From: a virus | Taxonomy: Duplodnaviria > Heunggongvirae > Uroviricota > Caudoviricetes | Strand: one strand, 5' to 3' | IMG/VR virus record: IMGVR_UViG_2606217105_000017 | Length of the DNA: 47,941 nt | Shown: positions 1 through 47,941 of the stretch, one piece after another | How positions within the stretch are numbered: the first letter of the stretch is position 1 | Layout: every line of letters starts with the position of its first letter | Made by a program: the position numbers and the translations under genes | Notes under the pieces: model-generated | Databases searched by the model: none | Told to the model about the DNA's origin: nothing | What the model saw: the letters and a program-made list of their open reading frames with translations, nothing else

Positions 1-1236
1 CTACGATAACCGTGCATTCAACATGGCTACCTGTTCGTCGTTCATGTCATCAATCCACATACCGTAAATTTCATACACCATCTGCGCAGTTTCATGCCCC
101 ATTTGGCTGGCTATAAATGCCGGGTTCGCTCCTGCCGTCAACAGCCAGCAGGCAAAAGTATGCCGCGTATGGTACGGATTACGGCGGCGAATACCAGCAC
201 GTTTTACTGCTGCATTCCACCTTGCCCCCAAACTGCTTACCGAGTAATAAGGTTTTTGTTTTCCGTTACACACCCTGGGCATGAAAACAAAATGCAGTTT
301 TTGCTTTTCGGTTCTGCCGTACTCCCGATGATAAAAGGTGATTTCGCTTTTGCGATGATGCCCGGTCAGTTTGTATTGCTCCTTCAGTGCTTCAAGAGCA
401 GGCTGCAGTAGTGTTACTGTCCGGATCCCGGCATTTGTTTTTGGGGGACCGAACATATCAAGTATCGTCAGGTTTCTTCTGACATTCACTATTCCCTTTT
501 CGAGATCCACATCCTCCCACGCCAGAGCTGCCAGTTCCCCGTGACGAAGTCCTGAGTAAACGGCAAATTTCCACAAGTTCTGGCTCTGTCCTTTTTCACT
601 TTCCATTAATGCATTGAATTCTGTTTTAGATAACGGATCAGGCTTTATTCTGTTTCGCTGTAATTTTTTTACTCCTTCAAATGGTTTGGTTGATATAAAT
701 CCCGACTGATACGCAAAACGTAACAGCGAACAGAGCAGGGCGATATAGTTATCAACTGTGCGTACGGTTCTTCCTTTTTTGTTGGATCTTGGATTATCCA
801 GGTAAAGCGTTTCTCCATGCAGCAGTTCATTCCGGTAATTTAAGATATCGCTATAACGAATATGTGATATCGGGGTACTTTCACAAATTATTATTCTGAG
901 TGTTTTTAATTGTGATTTCGTTTTCTTCATTGTGTTTGTTGTTAACTCTGTTTCTTTAATTTTTGTCCAGATATCACAAAGCTCCCCGAACGTTTTTATG
1001 ACTCTCGTTGTCACCATTTTTGCCCCAGTGCTGGACTGGGGAAAACGTCTTAAATACTCAAATTCACCGGAGTTTATTTCATGAACTATCAGCGCTCTTA
1101 AATTTCCGGCCTTTTTAATATTACTGTTTGTAATCTCCCAGCCTTTTAATGTTTCCCGACATCGTTTTCCTCGAAACATGAACCAGATGCGAATGTATCT
1201 ACCTCTAATCTCGACACCTGTTGGTAATTTAGACAT
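1..1236 (-). CDS. intR: Phage tyrosine integrase, Rac IntR-like (411 aa); complete, stop codon is the first triplet of the window
   Basis: Full ORF with ATG at 1234-1236; C-terminal tyrosine-recombinase catalytic region (..RNPYHTRHTFACWLL..YEIYG..); N-terminus MSKLPTGVEIRGRY recalled as Rac-type integrase. Confidence 0.85.
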   Translation of the reverse strand: MSKLPTGVEIRGRYIRIWFMFRGKRCRETLKGWEITNSNIKKAGNLRALIVHEINSGEFEYLRRFPQSSTGAKMVTTRVIKTFGELCDIWTKIKETELTTNTMKKTKSQLKTLRIIICESTPISHIRYSDILNYRNELLHGETLYLDNPRSNKKGRTVRTVDNYIALLCSLLRFAYQSGFISTKPFEGVKKLQRNRIKPDPLSKTEFNALMESEKGQSQNLWKFAVYSGLRHGELAALAWEDVDLEKGIVNVRRNLTILDMFGPPKTNAGIRTVTLLQPALEALKEQYKLTGHHRKSEITFYHREYGRTEKQKLHFVFMPRVCNGKQKPYYSVSSLGARWNAAVKRAGIRRRNPYHTRHTFACWLLTAGANPAFIASQMGHETAQMVYEIYGMWIDDMNDEQVAMLNARLS

Positions 1237-1237
1237 A

Positions 1238-1453
1238 TCATGATTCTTTGATAAACTGATTTATCTTTGGATAGTTGTACCAGATAATTCCTCGTTTGCT
1301 GTCTGGCTTACCTAAAGGAGATACTCGTTTGAAGTGGAAGCCCTCCACCCAACAGTTCTGGCGGTATGCTTCAATTTGTCTGACCCCCAGACCAGTGCGA
1401 AGCATCAGGCCGTATTCAACCATCCACTCTTCATTAAAGATTACTTGTGCCAT
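1238..1453 (-). CDS. xisR: Excisionase-like small DNA-binding protein (71 aa from internal ATG; ORF track extends to 1477 with a TTG)
   Basis: Immediately upstream of int on the same strand, 2-nt spacing; size and position typical of lambdoid Xis. Confidence 0.6.
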
Positions 1454-1552
1454 CGCATCACCTCTGGCAGGCGCCAATGTTAGACTGAAATTGACGCCCG
1501 ATGTTGATTATTAATAATCAGCTATGAAGTTTTAATTTGAATACAATGCAAC

Positions 1553-1753
1553 TCACGAGGACTGAAGTTTCTCGCAATTGAAATTAATCAGTTTTACTTT
1601 CTGCTCTCTGGAAACTCCTGCTTCTTTTTTACCTGAGAGCATTTTTTCGCATTCTGATTTCGTTAGTTTAGATTTTGAATATCTTGTCCAGTTAGTAGGA
1701 GTGCCACCTTCCTTTTCAATAGTGGCGGTAATTTTATACATGAACATCTCCAT
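1553..1753 (-). CDS. ydaC: YdaC-like small protein (DUF1187-like); alternative start at 1741 has the better SD
   Basis: ORF in Rac-like synteny between xis and ralR; three in-frame ATGs at 1753, 1747, 1741. Confidence 0.5.
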   Translation of the reverse strand: MEMFMYKITATIEKEGGTPTNWTRYSKSKLTKSECEKMLSGKKEAGVSREQKVKLINFNCEKLQSS

Positions 1754-1928
1754 TATTATTTCCAGTGGTTCGTTTATTCCATCTTTCGAGTGCTTCTTTT
1801 TCACTTCCACCATAACCGGTTCGGGATTCGCATGCGTTACACTTCGCTCGGTAATATCCTGAAATGGCTTTCACCGTTACTGATGGACAACCACAAAATG
1901 GACATGGTTTGACTTTTTCATACCGCAT
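1734..1928 (-). CDS. ralR: RalR/Lar restriction-alleviation protein, type I toxin (64 aa)
   Basis: Translation MRYEKVKPCPFCGCPSVTVKAISGYYRAKCNACESRTGYGGSEKEALERWNKRTTGNNNGDVHV, C4 zinc-ribbon, matches recalled Rac RalR; overlaps ydaC 5' end. Confidence 0.75.
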   Translation of the reverse strand: MRYEKVKPCPFCGCPSVTVKAISGYYRAKCNACESRTGYGGSEKEALERWNKRTTGNNNGDVHV

Positions 1929-1991
1929 TGTCTTTTCTCTCATATAATAAAATTTTGTGATGGCGGTGAGGCTACACCGCCAAAGTCAATA

Positions 1992-3095
1992 TTAGGATCC
2001 GATATATTCTGGTTTCATATCTGTCAGTGTCGTTTTATACGCCTCATATAATTCACCCAGATGTGGTCGAGCAGCATTCAGCGTATTTTCCAGAGCAGTA
2101 AATTTTTGTTCTGCTTCTGGATCACCTGATGAAGGCAGGTCATTTATCATCTTCTCGATACTGGCAATAGCATTGAGACGGTGATGACGCCGAACCACTT
2201 TTCCTTTAAGCTCGGCAAAGAATTCGCCGATCTGGTTTTTCTGATCCTCTATCTCTTGGCGTAATGCAGTGGTTTCCTCAGTCGTGGCCGCGCTTTCGAC
2301 ACGCTGCCGGAATTCATCAATCCACGCTTCGTCAATACGCTGTTCGATGGTTTCTGTTCGCTGCTCGCTTACCTCTCTATAATTCTGTACCGGCACAGGA
2401 TTGATGATTTTTTCCTGTGGCTCTTCCAGTTCGTCCGGGGTATACACGCCCAGGATGACGTCAGGACAATAAAGGCGAGCCCAGTATTTCAACGCCAGAT
2501 AGGCGAGCTGTTGTTTCGGGTTTGAGGTCCATAAAGGAGAATTACGCGTAATCACGCTGGAAAGAAACACCGGTTCTCCCCAGGTAATCTCACTTTCACC
2601 GCGAAGAACTGCACCAACTCGAACGGATAGACCATACTCATCTTCACTGGTCCAACATGGGATCGTTTCTTTTTTCTCATAGATTCCGCCTCCTTTGGCC
2701 GTTTTCTTAACGGTCTCCACTCGGGCGCGAGAGCATTTCTCCCAGTCTCCCTCGTACTTGTAATGGAAGCGGCCTACAATTGCACTTGAGCTAGAGATCA
2801 CAGCGTTAACAAGTTGTGCTTCATAACCCAGAACTCCGTTTACCAGGTGTGTTTTCTGAGCCACAGCGTAGGGGTTCATGCCCCATTGCATGGCTTGCAT
2901 GATGATTGCCATGCAGTCGGCAGGTTTTCCGCGAAGGTGATCGGGAACTGTGACGGTGGCCTGTGACATCAACCCGGCTACTTCCTGAAGTTGCGTCAAC
3001 GCCTGAACGTTAAAAATAGTGTTACTGGCAGAAATGGTATTTGGTGTCTGCTCTGTCGTGATGATATTGGTATTTTGCATGGTCAGGTTCTCCAT
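1992..3095 (-). CDS. RecT/Bet-family single-strand annealing protein (367 aa; SD-supported start may be the ATG at 3080)
   Basis: Directly downstream of and translationally coupled to the recE-like gene (TAATG overlap); central ..ADCMAIIMQAMQWGMNPYAVAQ.. segment resembles the RecT/Red-beta core; not identical to K-12 RecT. Confidence 0.65.
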   Translation of the reverse strand: MENLTMQNTNIITTEQTPNTISASNTIFNVQALTQLQEVAGLMSQATVTVPDHLRGKPADCMAIIMQAMQWGMNPYAVAQKTHLVNGVLGYEAQLVNAVISSSSAIVGRFHYKYEGDWEKCSRARVETVKKTAKGGGIYEKKETIPCWTSEDEYGLSVRVGAVLRGESEITWGEPVFLSSVITRNSPLWTSNPKQQLAYLALKYWARLYCPDVILGVYTPDELEEPQEKIINPVPVQNYREVSEQRTETIEQRIDEAWIDEFRQRVESAATTEETTALRQEIEDQKNQIGEFFAELKGKVVRRHHRLNAIASIEKMINDLPSSGDPEAEQKFTALENTLNAARPHLGELYEAYKTTLTDMKPEYIGS

Positions 3096-6000
3096 TAAGC
3101 CAGATGCAGTGCTTCAAGACGACGAAGATCAAAGTCGTTTAATTCGTCGGTATAACTTTCGGTAATCGGTGCTGGCCAGTTGTTTGTCTCTAGGGCTTCG
3201 TTTATCTGGCGTAGCGTCCGGCGATATTCCTGTCGACCAAGTTCCAGGAGTTCCTGCGAGGCTTCCACGACTGCCACCCAGTGATAGCCAACATCTTTGT
3301 TGACGAAGATCCAGAAAAATTTGTCCAGGTTTGCCACATCACAATACATTGCGGCGCTGAGGTGATAATCACGCTCAATAATTTCACGGTGCAGGCGATC
3401 TTTAAGTCGTTCCTGCCGCACATAACCGAGGCTGACTGACTTCACGTCAGCGCAAATGCTTTCGTATGGCAGCCGGATTTCGATATCAGGACGGACCCTG
3501 ATTTCCAGCCCGGTTTCTTCATCAAACCCGAAATAGCTGATTTCAGATTTGCGATCCGGGTGGTTGAGTAGCCTTGCTGTATCGGTATTGTTTTGCAGTG
3601 CCGCGTGAATATTTTTTGCCTGTTCATACATATCCGCACTGATAAACGTTTTCCCGGCGTTTTCTTCTTGCTGTCGTTTTTGCCAGTCCTCCAGTGTCAC
3701 CAGTTCCGGGCGAATTTTCCGTGCGATTTCGGTTAATTGCTCTTTTGTGCCACTGATGTTGTAAGGCAACGATTTAGCACGTTCTTTTTTTGCCAGTTCT
3801 GGATCTACAGTTTCAATTTGCTCCAGAAGCTGCTCCCGTGTTCCACTGGTTTTCAGCAGAGGAGGGAGGCTTGCGTTGTATTCTTTAATACAGGCTTTCA
3901 TTGCTGATGCTGTGTGTTTTTCCCCCTCAGGAATACGCCGAAATTCCTCCGGAAGCGAACCGTAAAGGATGCCTGTTTCTTCGGTCCCAGCGCTTACCGA
4001 CAGTGGCTGTATAAGAGTGCTGTTGTAGCTTTCGATCCACTCTTTCATCTGCTCTGGTGTCATCAGTGATGGCAGACTGGCATTGTATTTTTTAATGATG
4101 GTGATCAGTTCGTTAGAAGTAGTAACCACATATTCAGGAACCGGTACCGGAATGGCATATTCATCAGCGAATTTATCCGTTTCCAGAACGTAGCTGTGAA
4201 TGATCCGCCCACGCAGCAATGCATCACTTTCCTCGTTCGGAATAGTCCCGGCAATGTGCCGCCCGTGGTAATACATCAGACTGATGCGGGCATCCTTCAG
4301 CATTGTGCTGCTTATTCCGTTGGCGGAGTGATAAACCTCGTTCGGGAGGTTTTCATAGCGGCCAGGCTCGAAATATGACGGCCACATGATTTCAGTTGCT
4401 ACATTAGCTGACGCTTCACCAGTTTCATCACTGCAATCGTGATGCGGATGGTTGCCAGCATTCTCCTTGTGTGGATGTTCAGCGCTTTCCATTTCCTCCG
4501 GATCATTTTCCTGAACTTCAACCTGATTCTCTTCATCGAATGTTTCCTGGTATGTTGCGTCGCCCATCACCGCACCACAATCAGGGCAGTTGCCGCCGTC
4601 GGTCTGACCGCAGGCGGCGCAGGCTTTTTCCGGCTCCTGTTGCGTTATTGGCTCGGGTTGTTTCGTTTCTGGCTCGTTTTGTTGCGCATTTCGGCTGTTT
4701 TGTTCCGCTTTCTGGTCGTTCTGTTCCGTTTCTTGCTGGTTCTGATTCACTGAATCGCGGGTTTCAATCCCCTTCACCCATTTCGGATCGTTCGGGTCGC
4801 TAATTCCGTCAACAAATTCACCACGTGATGCAGCAAGTAATTTATCGGCATCGACAGGATTTTTTGATGGAATGTTTTTCCGGGCTTCATGGAGTTCTGC
4901 CCGCAGTTCCTGATATTTCGCATCAACAGAATTTACCTGTGACTGAGCATCCAGCGGCTGCGTGTCCTGATGATGTTCAGTTGCATTCGGTTCCACTGTT
5001 TCAGCCGTTGCCTGTTCATCTGCCATTGCGCCAGATGGTTGTGGCTTTTCTTCATCGTCCTGTTTTCCTTCTTCTGTCACACGCTGCGGCATCGGGGCAG
5101 AGGAGCGACCGCAGGCAATATCCACGATTTCCGGATCAGGGTTGGCATGATCAGTTTCAGTCAGTACTTTGTTCAGATATTCAGTGACGTGCGCGGGGAT
5201 GACCTCGATCCCAATTGGTGCTTCTTTCACGGACGCAACCACGGTGGCGCGGGAATAATCCAGCCCGCCAGGCATGGTGATGAATTTGTCGCGGAAAACA
5301 GAAAAGGGCGGTTTATTTTCAGCGATAATTTCCTCAATGCGTTTAGCGTGTGCCGGATGAAGGTTATAGATGTCCACGTCCATTGAACGGGCCAGTACGC
5401 CAGTGGCTACATCGCGTGCCAGTGACGTCAGATCGTGGACGAAACCTTCGCCGCGATCGGTGAGGTTCCCGCCGCCAGCATTAGCACCGGAAGCCGTGCG
5501 AGTGATGCGTGAAACACGATTCCCTTTCCTCCATTCTTTTGTCAGAAGACCACGATCAATGTGTTCGGTATCCAGCCAGGCTGAAATGAAATTCTTAAAT
5601 TCATAGGGCTGATGTTTTTTCGTGATAGAGAAAACTGCCTTAATTGCATCAGTCAGGCGGAGCAGGGCGGCATTATCCAGAGTTGTCGGTTCTGCCATGC
5701 CGCGTATGGCCAACAGCAGATTCTGGACATAGCTGTTTTCCTGGCCCATCTCAAGAGCAGTAATGTGTTCGCGTTGTTCACGGGTGGCATGATGCAGGTA
5801 TTTCCGATCCCCGGCCGCATACGTAAAAATGTGCAGAAGACGCTGTGTGAACCGCAAAGTGGCTACAGAAACTTCGCAATCCTGGCAATCCCCGTGGGCG
5901 TCTGCCTGCGCGTTTTCTTCCTGGCCTCCCGCCAGTTCTTTGGTTTCCTGGGTATTCTCCTGATGGTGAACGTCGTCTGGTGCTGCACCCGGTTTTAGTT

Positions 6001-6262
6001 CCCAGGTGATGGAGTCCTTGCCGAGTTGATAGCGTTCACACCACGTAAAATCGATCTCACCTTCAGGGGGAAGGTCATTAACGACAGGAAAATTAGTTGC
6101 AACAGTTTTAAAATAGTTGCTCAGTTTTTTACCTGACTTAACGATCAGGTAGTCCAGAGTGGCACTGGTCGATTCAAAATCGTCGCTTGCCCACAGGACG
6201 ACGTCAGGTTCACCGGATGATTTTTTCGCTTTCCGTAAAAGGAAGAGTGGTTTTGTGCTCAT
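3095..6262 (-). CDS. recE: RecE-like exonuclease VIII (1055 aa) with C-terminal PD-(D/E)xK exonuclease domain
   Basis: N-terminus [26 protein letters not shown] and central ..[37 protein letters not shown].. match recalled RecE; acidic linker with CxxC...CPDC motif. Confidence 0.8.
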
Positions 6263-40812: not shown

Positions 40813-40962
40813 ATCACAGTTTTATGATAAAACTTTTACCTTGGTTTGGAGTGCTGTAGAGAGATATTTTAGGGGAGGCGAGTAATTTTCTAAGCTGGAG
40901 CATATTGACATATATTATTTCGGATTTGCAAAATACAGATTGTAACCATGGAGGAGACAAGC

Positions 40963-42123
40963 ATGGAAAATTTTGCAAATAAGTTAAAAATACACACAGA
41001 GCATGTTGCAAAAATGGGGGTGTTTTGTACAACTGAAGAAACGACAAAACAAGCACTCATTATGCCATTACTAGATATTCTTGGTTTTACTCCGTATGAT
41101 CCAAGAAAAGTCAAAGCTGAGTATAGTGCTGACTTCCCCGGGGTTAAGGCTAATGAACGGGTTGATTACGCTTTATTTTGTCATGATGTTCCTGTGATGT
41201 TCATTGAGGCGAAATCGTTTTCAGAACAAATTGATAATCACTGCCCACAGCTATCAAGATATTTTAATTCAACACCGGAAGTTACTATATCAGCCATTAC
41301 AAATGGTGTTGAATGGCGTTTTTTTACGGATTTGAAACAAAAAAACATAATGGATTCAACGCCGTTTTTAAAATTAAGAATGGATTCTCTAACTCACTCC
41401 GATATTACACAATTATTTCGTTTTCGTTATGATAAATTCAAACCAGAGGCTTTACGGACACTGGCTGAAGAAAGTGTTTATTTGAATTCATTTACTAAAA
41501 CAATCAGTTCTAGTCTTCGTGAAGTTGATCTGGAGTTTGTTCGATATGTTGCTAGTCGTTCAAATATTGAGAGGCAACTTAATCAGAGATTTCTTGAGTT
41601 CGTGACTCCATTAGTTAAACAGGCCGTTGAGCGCGCTGTTAGCGCAATGGTGGTTTCCGGGCTATCTACACAACCGGTAGAGCAAACTAAAGAAAATGAT
41701 GCAACGGATACACAAGTTAATAACGCCATTGTTGATGAAGAAAACCCCAACATAATAACCACAGCCAAAGAATTGGAGCTATTTGAAAGGGTAAAACAAA
41801 TCATACAAACAGAAGATAATATAGAATATAAAGATACTGAGTCATATTTCGGTGTACTATTGAATGGTAAAACTAATAGATGGCTGTTAAGATTTTATGA
41901 TAAAAAATCTTCATTTATAACTTTACCTATTTCGCTTAGTGAAGTTCAGTTGAATGAAATAAGACGAGCTCGACTTGATACGGATGGTAAAAGGATACAT
42001 ATAACTAATCCGGAAGATATACTTCGCATATCTGGTTTGATTCTGGATTCATACGAGTATGTTAAAAATGATGATAATTTCCGCCGAGGGTCCAGAGTGA
42101 GCAGTTTAGAAGAGGTTGAATAA
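40963..42123 (+). CDS. Moron: PD-(D/E)xK nuclease-domain protein (HsdR-N-like N-terminus), 386 aa from SD-supported ATG
   Basis: AT-rich gene with GGAGGAG SD; motif ..ERVDYALFCHDVPVMFIEAKS..QLSRYF..ITNGVEWRFF..; followed by a bidirectional terminator; interrupts baseplate gene order. Confidence 0.6.
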   Translation: MENFANKLKIHTEHVAKMGVFCTTEETTKQALIMPLLDILGFTPYDPRKVKAEYSADFPGVKANERVDYALFCHDVPVMFIEAKSFSEQIDNHCPQLSRYFNSTPEVTISAITNGVEWRFFTDLKQKNIMDSTPFLKLRMDSLTHSDITQLFRFRYDKFKPEALRTLAEESVYLNSFTKTISSSLREVDLEFVRYVASRSNIERQLNQRFLEFVTPLVKQAVERAVSAMVVSGLSTQPVEQTKENDATDTQVNNAIVDEENPNIITTAKELELFERVKQIIQTEDNIEYKDTESYFGVLLNGKTNRWLLRFYDKKSSFITLPISLSEVQLNEIRRARLDTDGKRIHITNPEDILRISGLILDSYEYVKNDDNFRRGSRVSSLEEVE

Positions 42124-42163: not shown

Positions 42164-43390
42164 ATGTCAGAAATACCAATTACTATGACCAGTGCGGGTG
42201 CGCAGCCTACGCCACCCAATGATTTGCTCGCGAATCTTATCACTAGAGTTGCTGAAAAAGTACCTGGATATACAGCCAACCTTCCGGCGGGGCTTATTAC
42301 AGACCTTGCCAGCACGGCTGTCGGGGCGCTGGCATTAATAGACCAGGCGCGGGTGGACCTTATTAACTCCGTAAGCCCATACGGCGCGAATATTCCGTTA
42401 CTGATGCAACTCGGAAACATATATGGAGCACAGAAGGGATTAAGTACAAATACGGCGGTATACGTGGTGTTTGAGGCGTTGCCGGGGTTTGGTATCCCTA
42501 AAGGATTTGTTGTCGGTGACGGCAACTACCAGTATGCGGTTTCCCGCGATACCGTGGTACCGGAAAACGGGCAGACTGAGCCAGTCTACTGTGTGGCCAC
42601 AACGTCAGGCTCATGGGCTGTACCGGAAGGGACCGTGACGCAGGTCATTACCTCAGTACCCAAAGACCAGCCTGTAAAATGCACCAACTTTACCGCAGGA
42701 ATGCCCGGTCAGGAGGCGCAAACGTGGGCATCTTACCGCGCCGAAGTCATGGAGTCCGGCATGTTTGGTGTGCAGGGAACACCGGATTGCTTTAAAGCTA
42801 TGCTCAAATCAGTAAGCGGTGTGCGAGAAAACCTGATTTCTTTCCGGCAGTCGTCGCTGGGGAAATGGGTTGCGGTTGTTGGTGGCGGTGATCCGTATGA
42901 TGTGGCTTATGCGATTTACAAATCTGTACCGGATATTTCGAAACTGACCAACGATGTAAGCAATCCATCCGGTGCGGCAGTGGAAAAACGCACGGTTTCA
43001 ATAACCGTTTCGCCGGACGTTTATCAGGTGCCTTTCGTTATCCCGTCATCACAAAACGTCATGGTGCTAATCACCTGGAACACGGTGTCTGATGATTATG
43101 TTGATCCGGCGGGTATTGCTATGGCTGTGCAGCAAAACGTTGCTGATTACATCAATTCAATTGAAGTCGGACACCCGATAAATCTTCTGCGTATCCAGGA
43201 TATTTTTACCAGTTCTGTCAGGTTGCTGGTTGATGCGACGTTGATCTCAACAATCAGTGTGAGCATTGGTATTAACGGTCATATTGTTCTTCCGGCGAAA
43301 GACACAAGCCTGGTTTATGGCGATACCTATTCCTATTTTTCAACGGTGGCATCACAGGTTCAGGTCAACAAGTATGCAATATCTGACTGA
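42164..43390 (+). CDS. Baseplate J-like protein (408 aa)
   Basis: Size and order J, I, fibre, Tfa; GGAG SD. Confidence 0.55.
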   Translation: MSEIPITMTSAGAQPTPPNDLLANLITRVAEKVPGYTANLPAGLITDLASTAVGALALIDQARVDLINSVSPYGANIPLLMQLGNIYGAQKGLSTNTAVYVVFEALPGFGIPKGFVVGDGNYQYAVSRDTVVPENGQTEPVYCVATTSGSWAVPEGTVTQVITSVPKDQPVKCTNFTAGMPGQEAQTWASYRAEVMESGMFGVQGTPDCFKAMLKSVSGVRENLISFRQSSLGKWVAVVGGGDPYDVAYAIYKSVPDISKLTNDVSNPSGAAVEKRTVSITVSPDVYQVPFVIPSSQNVMVLITWNTVSDDYVDPAGIAMAVQQNVADYINSIEVGHPINLLRIQDIFTSSVRLLVDATLISTISVSIGINGHIVLPAKDTSLVYGDTYSYFSTVASQVQVNKYAISD

Positions 43391-44000
43391 GAAAATTCTC
43401 CCTGCTTATCCATTTGCGCAGTACAGAGATGATCCGAATGTTGTTGCGTTCTTTGATGCATACAATGAAATTGCTCAGGAATACCTCGATTCACTCAACA
43501 ATCTGGCATTGCCATGCTGGACATCGGAATCAATAACCGGGCAATTACTGGACTGGATTGCACTCGGGATTTATGGCGTTGAAAGGCCTTTACTACAGGT
43601 TTCCGAGGAGGCTATTGCACGCGGCGCATACGATACCATTGAATACAATACGATCCCGTATGCAGCAATGCGGAATTATGTTCCGGGGCAGGCATCGTAT
43701 GTACCTGATGATTATTTCAAACGAATATTAACGTGGAATTTTTATAAGGCTGACGGTTCGCATTTCTGCATTGACTGGTTAAAGCGCCGTGTGGCGCGGT
43801 TCATTCATGGGAAAAACGGAATAGACCCGCCGTTGCAGCACACTTTTGATGTGAGCGTGACTGTATCGGACAGTGTTTTTTCTATTCAGATACCAGAATA
43901 TGGTGATGGTATAGGCTATTTTCTGAAAGATGCCATTGACCAGAAATATGTAAAACTCCCTTTTATTTATTCCTATGCAACAACGGTGATTCAAAAATGA
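43374..44000 (+). CDS. Tail protein I-like (208 aa)
   Basis: Overlaps J-like stop; position before the fibre gene. Confidence 0.5.
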   Translation: MQYLTEKILPAYPFAQYRDDPNVVAFFDAYNEIAQEYLDSLNNLALPCWTSESITGQLLDWIALGIYGVERPLLQVSEEAIARGAYDTIEYNTIPYAAMRNYVPGQASYVPDDYFKRILTWNFYKADGSHFCIDWLKRRVARFIHGKNGIDPPLQHTFDVSVTVSDSVFSIQIPEYGDGIGYFLKDAIDQKYVKLPFIYSYATTVIQK

Positions 44001-45547
44001 TTCTTGGATTCGGCAATAACGTTGTTTCAGCACTGGCTGGTGATATTACGACGATTCAGACTGATATTCCGGTGATGCCGGGCACGGGAGCTAAATTTGC
44101 AAAATTGCTTTCTGCCGATTTTGAAAATAAATCGAACGGGCAACGCGTCTATGCAAAAATTACGCTTACCGATAATAAAGAGTCAGCGTTTGAGATTTGT
44201 CACCTGGTATCGGTAAGCGGTGATGTGCTGAAAGTCATTCGTGGGCAGGAAGGAACAACCGCGAAAGGTTGGTCCCTTAATGACGTTGTGGCTAACTTTG
44301 CCACACGTGGATCGGAAAACTATTTCGTACAGATAGCGCAGCTTCAGAGCGGTCATTATATTGCAGGTGTCGCTGGCGGCACTGCAAATGCACTGACGCT
44401 GGAGCTTCCCGCGACGTTTTTTGTTAATGGAGGTACAGATTGGACGCTACGAACTCCTATTATCGTTTTCCCCGTTCAGAACAATACCAACGCCGCAACG
44501 CTTCAATTGACACTGGGCGGAAAGGTTCTTGGTACGTTTCCACTTTATAAGGGGAACAAGTCCGGGCTGGTAGCGAACGATATCATTAAAGGTATTCCCT
44601 TAATTTGCCTTCTTGATAGCGAGAAAAGCTATTTCAGCGTGATAAACCCCGGCAATATCTATTCAGATTTTGATCTGCGATATGTAAAAAAATCTGGTGA
44701 TTTGATGACCGGGGAGCTGAAAATCCGTGGTGTTAATGCACTGAGGATTTTCAACGACGCTTTTGGTCTGATTTTTCGTCGTTCGGAAGAGTGCCTGCAC
44801 CTTATTCCTACCAGTGAAGGTCAGGGCGAGAATGGCGATATTGGTCCACTTCGACCGTTCACTATTAATCTGCGGACGGGTGAAATATCCATGTCGCATA
44901 AAGTGTCTGTTGGCGGTGGTTCTCAGGTCAATGGTGCGCTGGGTATCGGCGTTCAGAACGCGCTGGGCGGAAACTCAATTGCTTTCGGGGATAACGATAC
45001 AGGTATAAAACAAAACGGCGACGGCATTCTGGATGTTTATGCGAATGGACAGCATGTATTTCGTTTCCAGAATGGTGTGGCGATAGCGTTAAAAAATATT
45101 CAGGCCGGAAATGCTAAAAAATTCACGTTATCCAGCGCCAACAACTCAACGAAAAACGCAACGTTTAATTTATGGGGCAATTCGTCCCGTCCTGTAGTTG
45201 CAGAGCTTGGTGATGATTCCGGCTGGCATTTTTACAGCCAGAGAAATACGGATAACAGTATAACGTTCGCTGTAAACGGACAGATGGTCCCGTCAAATTA
45301 TGGAAATTTCGATGCCCGTTACCAGACCAAATCAGGGGGCGTGCAGAATTTTCAGTACACCAGTGAGGTGTTTTACAACCCTGGTGGGAATGAGCGCAGC
45401 TGGACGTTTCGGGCACCTTCTGGTTGTGTTTTGTCAGGCATTAATGTTCAGGACACTGGCAGTAACTCTGCAGATAATATCGGTGGCGTGTATTACAAAC
45501 AGGCTCAGATTTATATCAATGGTGCATGGCGATCCGTATCAGGTTAA
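43997..45547 (+). CDS. Tail fibre protein (516 aa)
   Basis: Gly/Asn/Ser/Thr-rich beta-rich sequence followed by a Tfa gene. Confidence 0.55.
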   Translation: MILGFGNNVVSALAGDITTIQTDIPVMPGTGAKFAKLLSADFENKSNGQRVYAKITLTDNKESAFEICHLVSVSGDVLKVIRGQEGTTAKGWSLNDVVANFATRGSENYFVQIAQLQSGHYIAGVAGGTANALTLELPATFFVNGGTDWTLRTPIIVFPVQNNTNAATLQLTLGGKVLGTFPLYKGNKSGLVANDIIKGIPLICLLDSEKSYFSVINPGNIYSDFDLRYVKKSGDLMTGELKIRGVNALRIFNDAFGLIFRRSEECLHLIPTSEGQGENGDIGPLRPFTINLRTGEISMSHKVSVGGGSQVNGALGIGVQNALGGNSIAFGDNDTGIKQNGDGILDVYANGQHVFRFQNGVAIALKNIQAGNAKKFTLSSANNSTKNATFNLWGNSSRPVVAELGDDSGWHFYSQRNTDNSITFAVNGQMVPSNYGNFDARYQTKSGGVQNFQYTSEVFYNPGGNERSWTFRAPSGCVLSGINVQDTGSNSADNIGGVYYKQAQIYINGAWRSVSG

Positions 45548-45560
45548 TTAAGGAGAAATA

Positions 45561-46091
45561 ATGGAACTCGTAAACGTTACGCGTTACTACCCTGAAGATA
45601 TGCCTTATGGTGAAGGCATTCAGTATTTCCGTAGTGAAGACGGGCAGGATTTTTATGAATCACTGGATAAGTTCACGAAGAAATACAAGCTGTGCACACA
45701 TCCTGAAACCGGCGTTATTTATTCCATGGCGGAAGATGTATCCCGCCTTTATCCCGTTGGTTTTACCATTGTGGAAGTGGATGAACTACCGGAAGGATTT
45801 TGTATTGAAGCCCGCTGGTATTATAAAGACGGTGAAGTACTGCCGGTCCCTGTTGACTCCCGGCAGCAGGCCGAGTCGGAGCGTGCACGTCTTACTGCGA
45901 TTGCCGAACGGGAAATATCCGATAAGAAGACGGATTTACTTCTGGGAATCATCAGTGATGAAGAAAAAGAAAAGTTGACAGCCTGGCGCATTTACGCGAA
46001 ATCGCTGCAGGCGATGGATTTCAGCACCATCGCTGATAAAACCTCATATAACGCCATTGAATGGCCCGTCTCTCCGGAAGCCTCTTCCTGA
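45561..46091 (+). CDS. Tail fibre assembly protein (176 aa)
   Basis: Tfa-like layout: ..ARLTAIAEREISDKKTDLLLGIISDEEKEKLTAWRIY..W.. Confidence 0.6.
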   Translation: MELVNVTRYYPEDMPYGEGIQYFRSEDGQDFYESLDKFTKKYKLCTHPETGVIYSMAEDVSRLYPVGFTIVEVDELPEGFCIEARWYYKDGEVLPVPVDSRQQAESERARLTAIAEREISDKKTDLLLGIISDEEKEKLTAWRIYAKSLQAMDFSTIADKTSYNAIEWPVSPEASS

Positions 46092-46114
46092 TTTAATTTA
46101 TCGCGAGAAAAACT

Positions 46115-47941
46115 ATGTCTGTAGTGATATCAGGTGCGCTGATAGATGGCGCAGGCATCCCCATGTCCGGATGCCACATAATTCTGAAATCCCGGGTAAA
46201 CACCTCAGAGGTGGTGATGCGCACAGTTGCCGACGTGGTGACAGGAAACTGTGGCGAGTACTGTTTTAAGGCGCAGACCGGAAAATATTGCGTATATCTG
46301 AAACAGGACTGGCGCGACGAGTACTATGTTGGCGACATTGCTGTATACGACGACTCAAAGCCCGGCACGCTGAACGACTTTCTGACTGCCCTTGATGAAG
46401 GCGATTTAAAGCCGGATGTAGTGAAACGATTTGAGGAAATGGTGGTGCAGGCACAGCAGAGTGCTGAAATCGCAGCATCATGTGCAGAACAGGCAGGGCA
46501 AATATTAAATAACATCCAGGAGGTTGCAGGGCAGCTTTCCACAGTACGCTTCGAAAATTTTAACGATATTAGCAGGCGGTGTACGACAGCCATGCTGAAG
46601 CTGGAACAACCCGAGGTTGTTAATACATCAATATCTTTAAAAATAAAAGAAAATATCGATTTTAATTATGTCGGTGCAGTTAACGGATATTGCGATATTC
46701 CTGAACCTGAAAAGTATAAAGTCGAAATGTATGCTTATACAACTGGAGAGTATTTTAACGGCGACGCTAATTTGAATAGTGACGGAACTTTCTATTTCAG
46801 ACGTTGCTGGACGGGAGCAAAACAGTTTCGTCTTATTCGGATTGAGGATAATGCGTGGATCACAACGCTGGAATTTCCGCTGCTCATTCGTAGTTACTGG
46901 ATGCCAGAGGACGCAGATCCTGACGTGATCAGGGTGATGAAAGACCGATGTTACACGTATGACCAGGCGCTGGCAGCACTGGCGTTGATGGTTCAGCGAC
47001 ATGAAGCTGTGGAAAGATACGTTTCAGGTTTGTGTGCACTTGTTGATGAAAACGGCGGGGTGAAATTTTTTGTTAACAGGCTGTCGGCCATGTCTTCGCG
47101 CGCCTATTATCGACTGGGCAATGCGGCATGGGTTTACTATGCCCTTGCGTTCTATCTGGAGAAATACCCGGACGGAGCACAGGTAAATATTGTTCGGGCA
47201 AAGTTGTTATCTGGCATCAGCTGGCTGGATTCTTTCCTGGTAACCGCCCCTGGTGATTTACGTGAAGGCCTGTATAAAGGCGGCCTTGGTCGTTATGTAA
47301 ATGGCGAATTTGACGCCAGTTTCGTTGCCGAATGGTGCGCACTGGAGCATAACGTTGATATCTGGTTTTTGTTTGAACTGATGGGGAGACTGGAATTTAA
47401 CGGCTTCATTCAACGCGCCGATGCGCTGGCAAAAAGTATCATCAGGGGGTTCTGGATGGAAGAGGAAGGCCGGTTCCGGCAGGGAGTACACCCAACCAGT
47501 TATGATAACGCGGCGGCTCTCGATCAATCGTCATGGGGCGGGCTGTTTGTAGCGAATATAGACATGGCTAAAGCTGTACGTTGTCGTAAGTATATGGGGC
47601 GTTTCTTTTTTGGCACCCGCGAAGCCACGGGTTACACACCTTACCACCCCGATTATGGATACAGTGGTCACAGTCGAGGTGTATGGGTGGAAGGGACCGC
47701 AGGAGTGGCACTTTTTGAGAGAAAGCTTGGAAACGAGGTTACAGCAGTGAATCTCATTGCAGCAATGGCACCGCTTCGTGATGAATACGGCTATCGTGAT
47801 TCATGCGATGACCCGGCATATGATGTGCTCCCACCCTGGCCATCAACAACAAACACGGCGTGGGTAATCCTGACAGTAAAACCTGATAATTTTTGGCTGG
47901 TAGATTCACCGATCATGGACGTTGGCATGATTCGATACTGA
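46115..47941 (+). CDS. Second tail fibre / tailspike: side-tail-fibre N-terminal anchor plus putative enzymatic C-terminal domain (608 aa)
   Basis: N-terminus MSVVISGALIDGAGIP..DSKPGTLNDFLTALDEGDLKPDVVKRFEEMV.. resembles lambdoid Stf N-termini; C-terminal 450 aa non-fibrous, Trp/Tyr-rich; stop is the last triplet of the window. Confidence 0.55.
   Translation: MSVVISGALIDGAGIPMSGCHIILKSRVNTSEVVMRTVADVVTGNCGEYCFKAQTGKYCVYLKQDWRDEYYVGDIAVYDDSKPGTLNDFLTALDEGDLKPDVVKRFEEMVVQAQQSAEIAASCAEQAGQILNNIQEVAGQLSTVRFENFNDISRRCTTAMLKLEQPEVVNTSISLKIKENIDFNYVGAVNGYCDIPEPEKYKVEMYAYTTGEYFNGDANLNSDGTFYFRRCWTGAKQFRLIRIEDNAWITTLEFPLLIRSYWMPEDADPDVIRVMKDRCYTYDQALAALALMVQRHEAVERYVSGLCALVDENGGVKFFVNRLSAMSSRAYYRLGNAAWVYYALAFYLEKYPDGAQVNIVRAKLLSGISWLDSFLVTAPGDLREGLYKGGLGRYVNGEFDASFVAEWCALEHNVDIWFLFELMGRLEFNGFIQRADALAKSIIRGFWMEEEGRFRQGVHPTSYDNAAALDQSSWGGLFVANIDMAKAVRCRKYMGRFFFGTREATGYTPYHPDYGYSGHSRGVWVEGTAGVALFERKLGNEVTAVNLIAAMAPLRDEYGYRDSCDDPAYDVLPPWPSTTNTAWVILTVKPDNFWLVDSPIMDVGMIRY

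Follow-up and report, generated by a model that had tools for sequence, protein, structure and literature searches.

The IMG/VR record IMGVR_UViG_2606217105_000017 (47,941 nucleotides; called the window in the following, by which the whole stretch of DNA that was analysed is meant) represents a complete prophage of Escherichia coli, which extends from a tyrosine integrase gene to a tail fibre gene as its last gene. This last gene, here named fibre 2 (46115-47941, plus strand), encodes a chimeric protein of 608 residues, in which an N-terminal anchor of the lambda side tail fibre (Stf) type is joined to a glycosidase-like module, and the present analysis points to a virion-borne enzyme that may act on host surface polysaccharides. 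The open reading frame (ORF) is intact from the ATG at 46115 to the TGA at 47939-47941, and this stop codon coincides with the end of the window. The protein is 99.6% identical to WP_000117759 of E. coli 214-4, where it is also encoded by the last prophage gene, adjoining uspF and ompN. Three PHROG families match the protein, 4128 over its full length (E 5.8e-217), 13714 over residues 130-608 (E 6.3e-266) and 7032 (E 1.9e-169), which are all labelled 'tail fiber protein' with no further functional annotation. Searches of the C-terminal part against Pfam, NCBIfam and the PDB sequences gave nothing beyond these tail fibre labels.

Anchor and recombination junctions of fibre 2

The original prediction, made from the sequence alone, held that the first 130 residues resemble the N-termini of lambdoid side tail fibres, and this part of it is well supported. 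The family PF08400, 'Prophage tail fibre N-terminal' (phage_tail_N), matches residues 1-129 (46115-46501, plus strand) with 206.1 bits against a cut-off of 26.6 (E 2.4e-61) and is covered from position 1 to 129 of its 134 profile positions. Furthermore, the solved N-terminus of lambda Stf (9e7m, chain Ta) matches residues 1-93 (E 1.3e-17). In the full-length AlphaFold2 model the anchor comprises a beta-sandwich (residues 1 to about 90, with strands at 2-77) and the start of a single long helix at residues 100-140 (46412-46534, plus strand), the presumed stalk. This helix has a predicted local distance difference test score (pLDDT) of 39-57 in the monomer model; such values are expected of a coiled coil that is modelled as a monomer, and the helix probably forms a trimeric coiled-coil stalk.

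The position of the gene is also known from related elements. The late regions of phiP27 and Rac-SA53 show the identical order of fibre 1, the tail fibre assembly chaperone Tfa1, an Stf-anchored fibre 2 and a second chaperone, Tfa2. In phiP27 the latter two are L56 (490 residues) and L57, in Rac-SA53 tail3 (1061 residues) and tail4. The view of the gene as coding for a second receptor-binding protein is thereby strengthened, since both elements hold an Stf-anchored fibre with its Tfa2 at the same place.

The DNA identity profiles (blastn and identity in 30-nucleotide windows) place the left recombination junction, at which the imported module meets the anchor of phiP27 type, at 46469-46543 (plus strand). 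In megablast the first 354 nucleotides of the fibre 2 gene are 94% identical to phiP27 and Rac-SA53, and the blastn alignments to these two elements, with identities of 93% and 87% over 45939-46468 and 45290-46468, both stop at 46468. Per window of 30 nucleotides, the number of identical positions across the junction goes from 27-30 to 23 and then to 18, and becomes random by about 46505, and the homology of the mobile module, as seen across other anchors, begins at about residue 144 (46544). The right junction can be seen in the 99.6% identical locus of E. coli 214-4 (L001), in which 36 codons, QAQVERNDAIYQRQREMKSELSNLENLKSIRDLRLD, stand directly after the fibre 2 stop. This remnant matches the C-terminal end of phiP27 L57, AQAQVDRNDEIYQRQRELKEELSSLGDLNSVRNFIVE, and carries the RefSeq label partial DUF4376. 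Hence, the left junction together with the tfa2 remnant indicates that a cassette now stands in place of the distal portion of fibre 2 and of almost the entire tfa2, and domain shuffling is directly visible at this gene. The remnant lies at 9830-9940 of L001, just past the end of the window, and between it and uspF stands a GC-rich inverted repeat of 10 bp (GCCGCGGTTC...GAACCGCGGC).

Shuffling had been suspected before from an AT-rich segment at about 46600-46800. The segment is real, with a G+C content of 0.335-0.37 in 200-nucleotide windows over 46500-46800, and of 0.36 over 46631-46876 compared with 0.51 on either flank. The shuffling is real as well, but the segment does not mark its border. 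It corresponds to an internal domain of the module, a beta-sandwich of residues 173-254 (46631-46876, plus strand; strands at 174-253 in both AlphaFold2 models), and was rejected as recombination junction because the identity profiles put the junction upstream of it. This beta-sandwich is kept alongside the barrel described below in relatives of at least 40% identity, and it always travels with the barrel.

Predicted fold and conserved residues of the module

Two AlphaFold2 models were made, one of residues 130-608 (pLDDT 87.1, predicted template modelling score (pTM) 0.89) and one of the full-length protein (pLDDT 81, pTM 0.72). In the predicted layout the beta-sandwich of the Stf anchor (residues 2-77) and the long helix (100-140) are followed by a small neck (146-162), the seven-strand beta-sandwich encoded by the AT-rich DNA (174-253), twelve helices (269-588) and a short C-terminal strand (605-607). 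The twelve helices (46919-47878, plus strand) build an inner and an outer six-helix barrel, which is the arrangement of the six-hairpin glycosidase-like (alpha/alpha)6 barrel superfamily. In the predicted structures, residues from about 144 to 608 form a self-contained module of beta-sandwich and (alpha/alpha)6 barrel.

A Foldseek search against the PDB returned 100 matches at E <= 1e-3, and the closest solved structures are almost all glycoside hydrolases or transglycosylases. The best matches are alpha-L-rhamnosidases of glycoside hydrolase family 78 (GH78), whose alignments span 570-590 columns, consistent with a common layout of beta-sandwich and barrel. Among the structural neighbours are a dextran dextrinase (9ju0), MmpH (7qsj) and a GH15-related glycosidase (5z3a), with scores of 31.2, 29.7 and 27.5, respectively.

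The models agree with most of what had been expected for the C-terminal part. It had been described as a globular remainder of about 450 residues; it is globular in both models, but with roughly 478 residues somewhat longer. The enrichment in aromatic residues was found as stated, with 2.7% tryptophan and 5.9% tyrosine, about 1.7-fold the values of 1.5% and 3.6% for the remaining long ORFs in the window. The structure prediction that had been proposed as a check shows neither a beta-helix nor a chaperone-dependent tip, but a glycosidase-like barrel. In accordance, no parallel beta-helix or pectate-lyase-like match for fibre 2 appeared in the models, in Pfam or in the structure searches. A beta-helix or a Tfa-dependent tip was rejected for the module on the basis of models lacking a beta-helix and of a synteny lacking a downstream Tfa gene.

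An exhaustive HMMER search yielded 489 cluster representatives at E <= 1e-3, of which 60 were aligned, down to about 24% identity. Despite a mean column identity of 15% in this alignment, Y282, G335, G390, E411, L469, D470 and E526 are invariant in all 60 distant relatives. Another 18 positions are conserved in at least 90% of them, namely S260, D283, A285, G314, R333, A338, A343, W407, H412, D415, W447, G457, D464, W474, G506, W524, G527 and W583. The distribution of these 25 positions follows the predicted barrel: for 17 of them, the N-terminal start of helix 2, 4, 6, 8, 10 or 12 is at most five residues away, none lies near the start of an odd-numbered helix, and every conserved charged residue falls among the 17 helix-start positions. 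In six-hairpin glycosidases, the active-site funnel is built by the inner helices at their N-terminal ends. This organization has been described for MmpH, GH15 and GH125 (PMC9883506).

Four acidic residues stand out as candidates for an active site, all encoded on the plus strand. D283 (codon 46961-46963) belongs to the motif YTYDQA, two residues into barrel helix 2, and is a candidate substrate-binding or acid residue. E411 (47345-47347), in the motif W-x3-E-H-N-x-D, lies one residue into helix 6 and is a candidate general acid. The invariant acidic residue D470 (47522-47524), in LDxSSWGG, is found one to two residues into helix 8, and E526 (47690-47692), in VWVEGT, one residue into helix 10, where it may serve as general base. 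Prediction and comparative genomics together show a conserved acidic constellation at the modelled mouth of the barrel. The earlier suggestion of a possibly enzymatic domain has thus gained weight from a glycosidase-like fold with invariant acidic residues at the expected active-site mouth.

The only PDB sequence touched by the family profile is that of MmpH (hmmsearch, E 0.078). MmpH is an endo-alpha-(1->4)-mannosidase with Glu262 as catalytic base and Asp47 or Asp50 as acid; the exchange E262A abolishes its activity, and D47A and D50A lower it drastically (PMC9883506). For a profile comparison with hhalign, the alignment of the MmpH family was rebuilt from 80 mycobacterial loci. At an hhalign probability of 9-13%, YTYD283Q falls on DPWD50H, which places D283 on Asp50 of MmpH, and W524-V-E526-G falls on W-V-T-G-A-E262. 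With such a probability the residue mapping onto MmpH is suggestive but not proven.

Spread of the module and genomic setting

From about residue 144 on, the module is found joined to other anchors, namely PF12571 (tail-collar fibre), PF18668 (the N-terminus of TSP1/Gp66 tailspikes), PF03406 and PF25613, and it is further carried by proteins with various tailspike-type PHROG N-termini or with no recognised anchor. At least five anchor types bear it, in prophages that resemble myo-, sipho- and podoviruses. In the lambdoid phage phiSTEC1575-Stx2k it is encoded after gpJ and lom (88% amino acid identity), in a myovirus-like prophage of the Baseplate_J type after a fibre and Tfa pair, and in a siphovirus prophage after a GpJ-like protein. 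In a podovirus-like prophage it stands just before the lysis cassette of holin and endolysin, the slot of the sole tailspike in epsilon15-like phages. Finally, the same anchor-plus-module gene is the last gene, after gpD, of a P2-like prophage in E. coli C012 (L093, 3001-4827). A Tfa gene downstream of the module was found in none of these five other contexts, and L001 holds just the stump of 36 codons. The module is a chaperone-independent plug-in cassette. In E. coli E275a (L092, 1-2829) the anchor-plus-module gene adjoins an IS66 insertion, which has removed the upstream tail genes. The usual order of domains is reversed in one relative of 644 residues (P0076), in which the module is N-terminal and a 'virion structural protein' domain (phrog_2935, phrog_1037) stands C-terminal to it.

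Close copies occur in two of 50,697 phage records, both coliphages, and distant copies with 22-30% identity were found in the same records in Microbacterium, Thermus and Coprococcus phages. Four viral structures of BFVD match at E <= 1e-3. A full-length copy is present in 20 of 5,426 complete E. coli genomes; at least 8 complete genomes carry the fibre 2 ORF intact and at 99.6% identity, and its exact protein sequences turn up on hundreds of contigs. Outside E. coli the identity of the module amounts to 84% in Yersinia, 85% in Salmonella and 72-73% in Citrobacter. Compared with two diverged copies, the ratio of nonsynonymous to synonymous substitution rates (dN/dS) of the module is about 0.08 at a dS of 0.8-0.9, which means strong purifying selection and rules out a decayed relic.

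Within the window, fibre 2 follows a complete pair of fibre and chaperone. The first receptor-binding fibre, fibre 1 (43997-45547, plus strand, 516 residues), matches the PHROG tail-fibre families 6859 and 454. Its assembly chaperone Tfa1 (45561-46091, plus strand; PF02413 Caudo_TAP, E 2e-22; phrog_136, E 1e-55) is separated by a gap of 23 nucleotides from the start of fibre 2. Compared with the otherwise 99% identical prophage of E. coli 214-4, the stretch 45076-45938 is the only one that does not align. It spans the distal tip of fibre 1 and two-thirds of Tfa1, counted from its N-terminus, while fibre 2 is kept; the difference looks like a classic swap of a tip-plus-chaperone cassette.

A Baseplate_J gene (42164-43390) lies upstream of fibre 1. 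The baseplate operon contains a low-GC island (G+C content 0.30-0.40) at 40900-42123 with an ORF of 391 residues (40948-42123, plus strand), which has PF04313 (HSDR_N, E 5.6e-14), the nuclease domain of type I restriction R subunits, as its only domain. Rac-SA53 carries other cargo (ant, rac61, rac62) at this spot, which may be a hot spot for morons or defence genes. At the other end of the window, the gene of the tyrosine integrase with its Arm-DNA-binding domain (1-1236, minus strand) opens an early region (1-6262) that is Rac-like, with RecT and a RecE/exonuclease VIII of 1054 residues, and the late region is phiP27-like. Therefore, the element is a mosaic of Rac and phiP27 at the Rac attachment site, and the phage is a phiP27-like temperate myovirus integrated there.

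Proposed function and comparison with known systems

Collectively, our data support the notion that fibre 2 is a virion-borne, probably inverting glycosidase acting as receptor-binding protein, the chaperone-independent module of which replaced the distal part of an ancestral fibre 2 and most of tfa2; as a rough estimate, we assign a probability of 0.6 to this reading. As judged from its family, the Stf-type domain (residues 1 to about 90) would dock the protein on the tail. Three chains would assemble via anchor and coiled coil and thereby display three globular modules. The barrel is most likely an active glycoside hydrolase, and by analogy with its nearest structural neighbours it would probably cleave alpha-linked sugars with inversion. 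Endo action is possible in this fold, as MmpH shows. For the putative catalysis, the roles of acid and base could fall to E411 and E526, respectively, and D283 and D470 could line the pocket. The putative enzyme would attach to and cleave a polysaccharide of the host surface, which might be O-antigen, lipopolysaccharide (LPS) core, enterobacterial common antigen, colanic acid or capsule. Such cutting would open the way to the outer membrane for the baseplate and fibre 1, and the protein would thereby contribute to the host range.

Several observations weigh against a glycosidase. No Pfam model of a glycosidase, be it GH15, GH78 or another glycoside hydrolase, matches fibre 2 at E <= 1, and among the NCBIfam models there is likewise no glycoside hydrolase match for the module. 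A Pfam scan of the 60 distant relatives gave just three marginal matches to MGH1-like_GH (E 0.0055). The hhalign match between the module and the MmpH family is weak, and E526 comes to lie one to three residues off the catalytic base Glu262 in the HMMER and hhalign alignments. The placing of the invariant residues in one pocket follows from the helix register and not from measured coordinates. The structure searches also found the (alpha/alpha)6 fold in epimerases, isomerases, a dehydratase and terpene cyclases. Finally, the searched literature holds no activity data for any member of the module family, and the gene neighbourhoods of stand-alone bacterial homologues gave no hints on a substrate.

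The missing match to any glycosidase sequence model and the marginal link to MmpH would fit a catalytically silent, lectin-like receptor-binding domain with a borrowed glycosidase fold, which binds a surface glycan and leaves it uncut; the very low dN/dS is as compatible with a conserved binding site. We nevertheless consider this unlikely, because the acidic residues E411, D470 and E526 show no variation, and D283, H412 and D415 hardly any, from enterobacterial prophages down to relatives of about 25% identity, all at the N-termini of inner helices, and the family reaches proteins of Microbacterium, Thermus and Coprococcus phages at 22-30% identity. Sites that serve binding alone seldom retain such a set of residues when the hosts have unrelated envelopes. 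The module might also be an enzyme with non-hydrolytic chemistry, for example a polysaccharide lyase, a transglycosylase or phosphorylase, or a sugar epimerase or isomerase working on a surface glycan. This appears quite improbable to us, since the characterised enzyme closest in sequence, MmpH, is a hydrolase. Moreover, the invariant pair of glutamates in helices 6 and 10 resembles the acid/base layout that GH15 and GH125 show in clan GH-L (PMC9883506). Epimerases of this fold rely on histidines, whereas the module family keeps only H412, a contrast that concerns the general reliance on histidines and not their layout.

It is highly improbable that the fibre 2 gene is only a recombination scar in a decaying prophage, i.e. 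a chimera that is no longer assembled into virions, although it stands last before the attachment site, with a truncated tfa2 behind it, and some E. coli loci are disrupted by insertion sequences. Such a scar is hardly compatible with the intact ORF in at least 8 complete genomes, the identical proteins on hundreds of contigs and the dN/dS of 0.08. In addition, the same anchor-plus-module architecture exists in the deposited genome of phage phiSTEC1575-Stx2k, phrog_4128 covers the whole length of the protein, and the window holds a complete prophage from integrase to tail.

Returning to the glycosidase as preferred reading, the high identity across genera together with the low dN/dS gives a hint towards a conserved glycan as target, which is speculation. 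A conserved glycan would explain the strong conservation no less well than a serotype-specific one would. Taken further, the module could found an unclassified, chaperone-free glycoside hydrolase family that is used by temperate enterobacterial phages of all three tail types and is directed against a glycan conserved among Enterobacterales, such as enterobacterial common antigen or LPS core, and not against serotype-specific O or K antigens. It would then be a 'universal' depolymerase of broad range. This extension is tentative, and we regard it as rather unlikely.

By its anchor fibre 2 belongs to PF08400, and by its predicted structure to the six-hairpin fold class. It shares the N-terminal PF08400 anchor with lambda Stf, phiP27 L56 and Rac-SA53 tail3, and, with the latter two, also the place behind fibre 1 and Tfa1 at the end of the prophage. 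However, these proteins continue as long fibres and require a downstream Tfa (L57, tail4), whereas fibre 2 turns past about residue 128 into a globular, enzyme-like module, and its tfa2 is reduced to 36 codons. The sequence identity to MmpH (PDB 7QSJ), a mycobacterial methylmannose-polysaccharide endo-alpha-(1->4)-mannosidase, is 13%. MmpH is a cytoplasmic stand-alone enzyme of 345 residues that has neither the beta-sandwich nor a phage anchor, and unlike the module family it lacks a counterpart of the invariant E411. Similarly, the identity is 10-14% to GH15 and GH15-like enzymes (9JU0 dextran dextrinase, 1ULV glucodextranase, glucoamylases, 5Z3A) and to GH78; these enzymes serve metabolism as exo- or transglycosidases and are not part of virions.

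Enzymatic receptor-binding proteins determine the host choice of phages and are mined as anti-capsule and anti-biofilm reagents. To our knowledge, the characterised ones are almost all beta-helix tailspikes. In this regard, fibre 2 represents a well-defined example that is widespread in pathogenic E. coli, among them enterotoxigenic strains of O169:H41 and O27:H7, and also occurs in an Stx2k phage, and it offers clear domain boundaries, four candidate catalytic residues and a traceable cassette history. If active, the module would stand for a new glycosidase family, the substrate of which might be of diagnostic or therapeutic use, and its unusual conservation could indicate a common enterobacterial glycan as phage receptor.

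The searched literature contains no characterised tail fibre with an alpha/alpha-toroid or six-hairpin fold and no paper on the module family, only bulk surveys of folds. In one of them, the alpha/alpha-toroid was assigned to 11 of 984 predicted depolymerases, and these examples were left out of the model training because they were too few (PMC11326577). In the other, it was found in 29 of about 3,900 predicted depolymerases of Klebsiella prophages (PMC12491483). Taken both surveys together, the fold accounts for only about 1% of the predicted phage depolymerases. Like the tailspikes, e.g. the endorhamnosidases of P22 and Sf6, the CBA120 TSPs and HK620, and like the SGNH esterase gp63.1 of G7C, fibre 2 combines an exchangeable N-terminal anchor with a C-terminal, here putatively enzymatic module, does without a Tfa chaperone, and has a module that is horizontally shuffled among morphotypes. 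It differs from them in its predicted fold, which is an alpha/alpha toroid instead of a right-handed beta-helix or an SGNH domain. Enzymatic receptor-binding proteins are well known, and fibre 2 with its putative activity is a rare variant among them.

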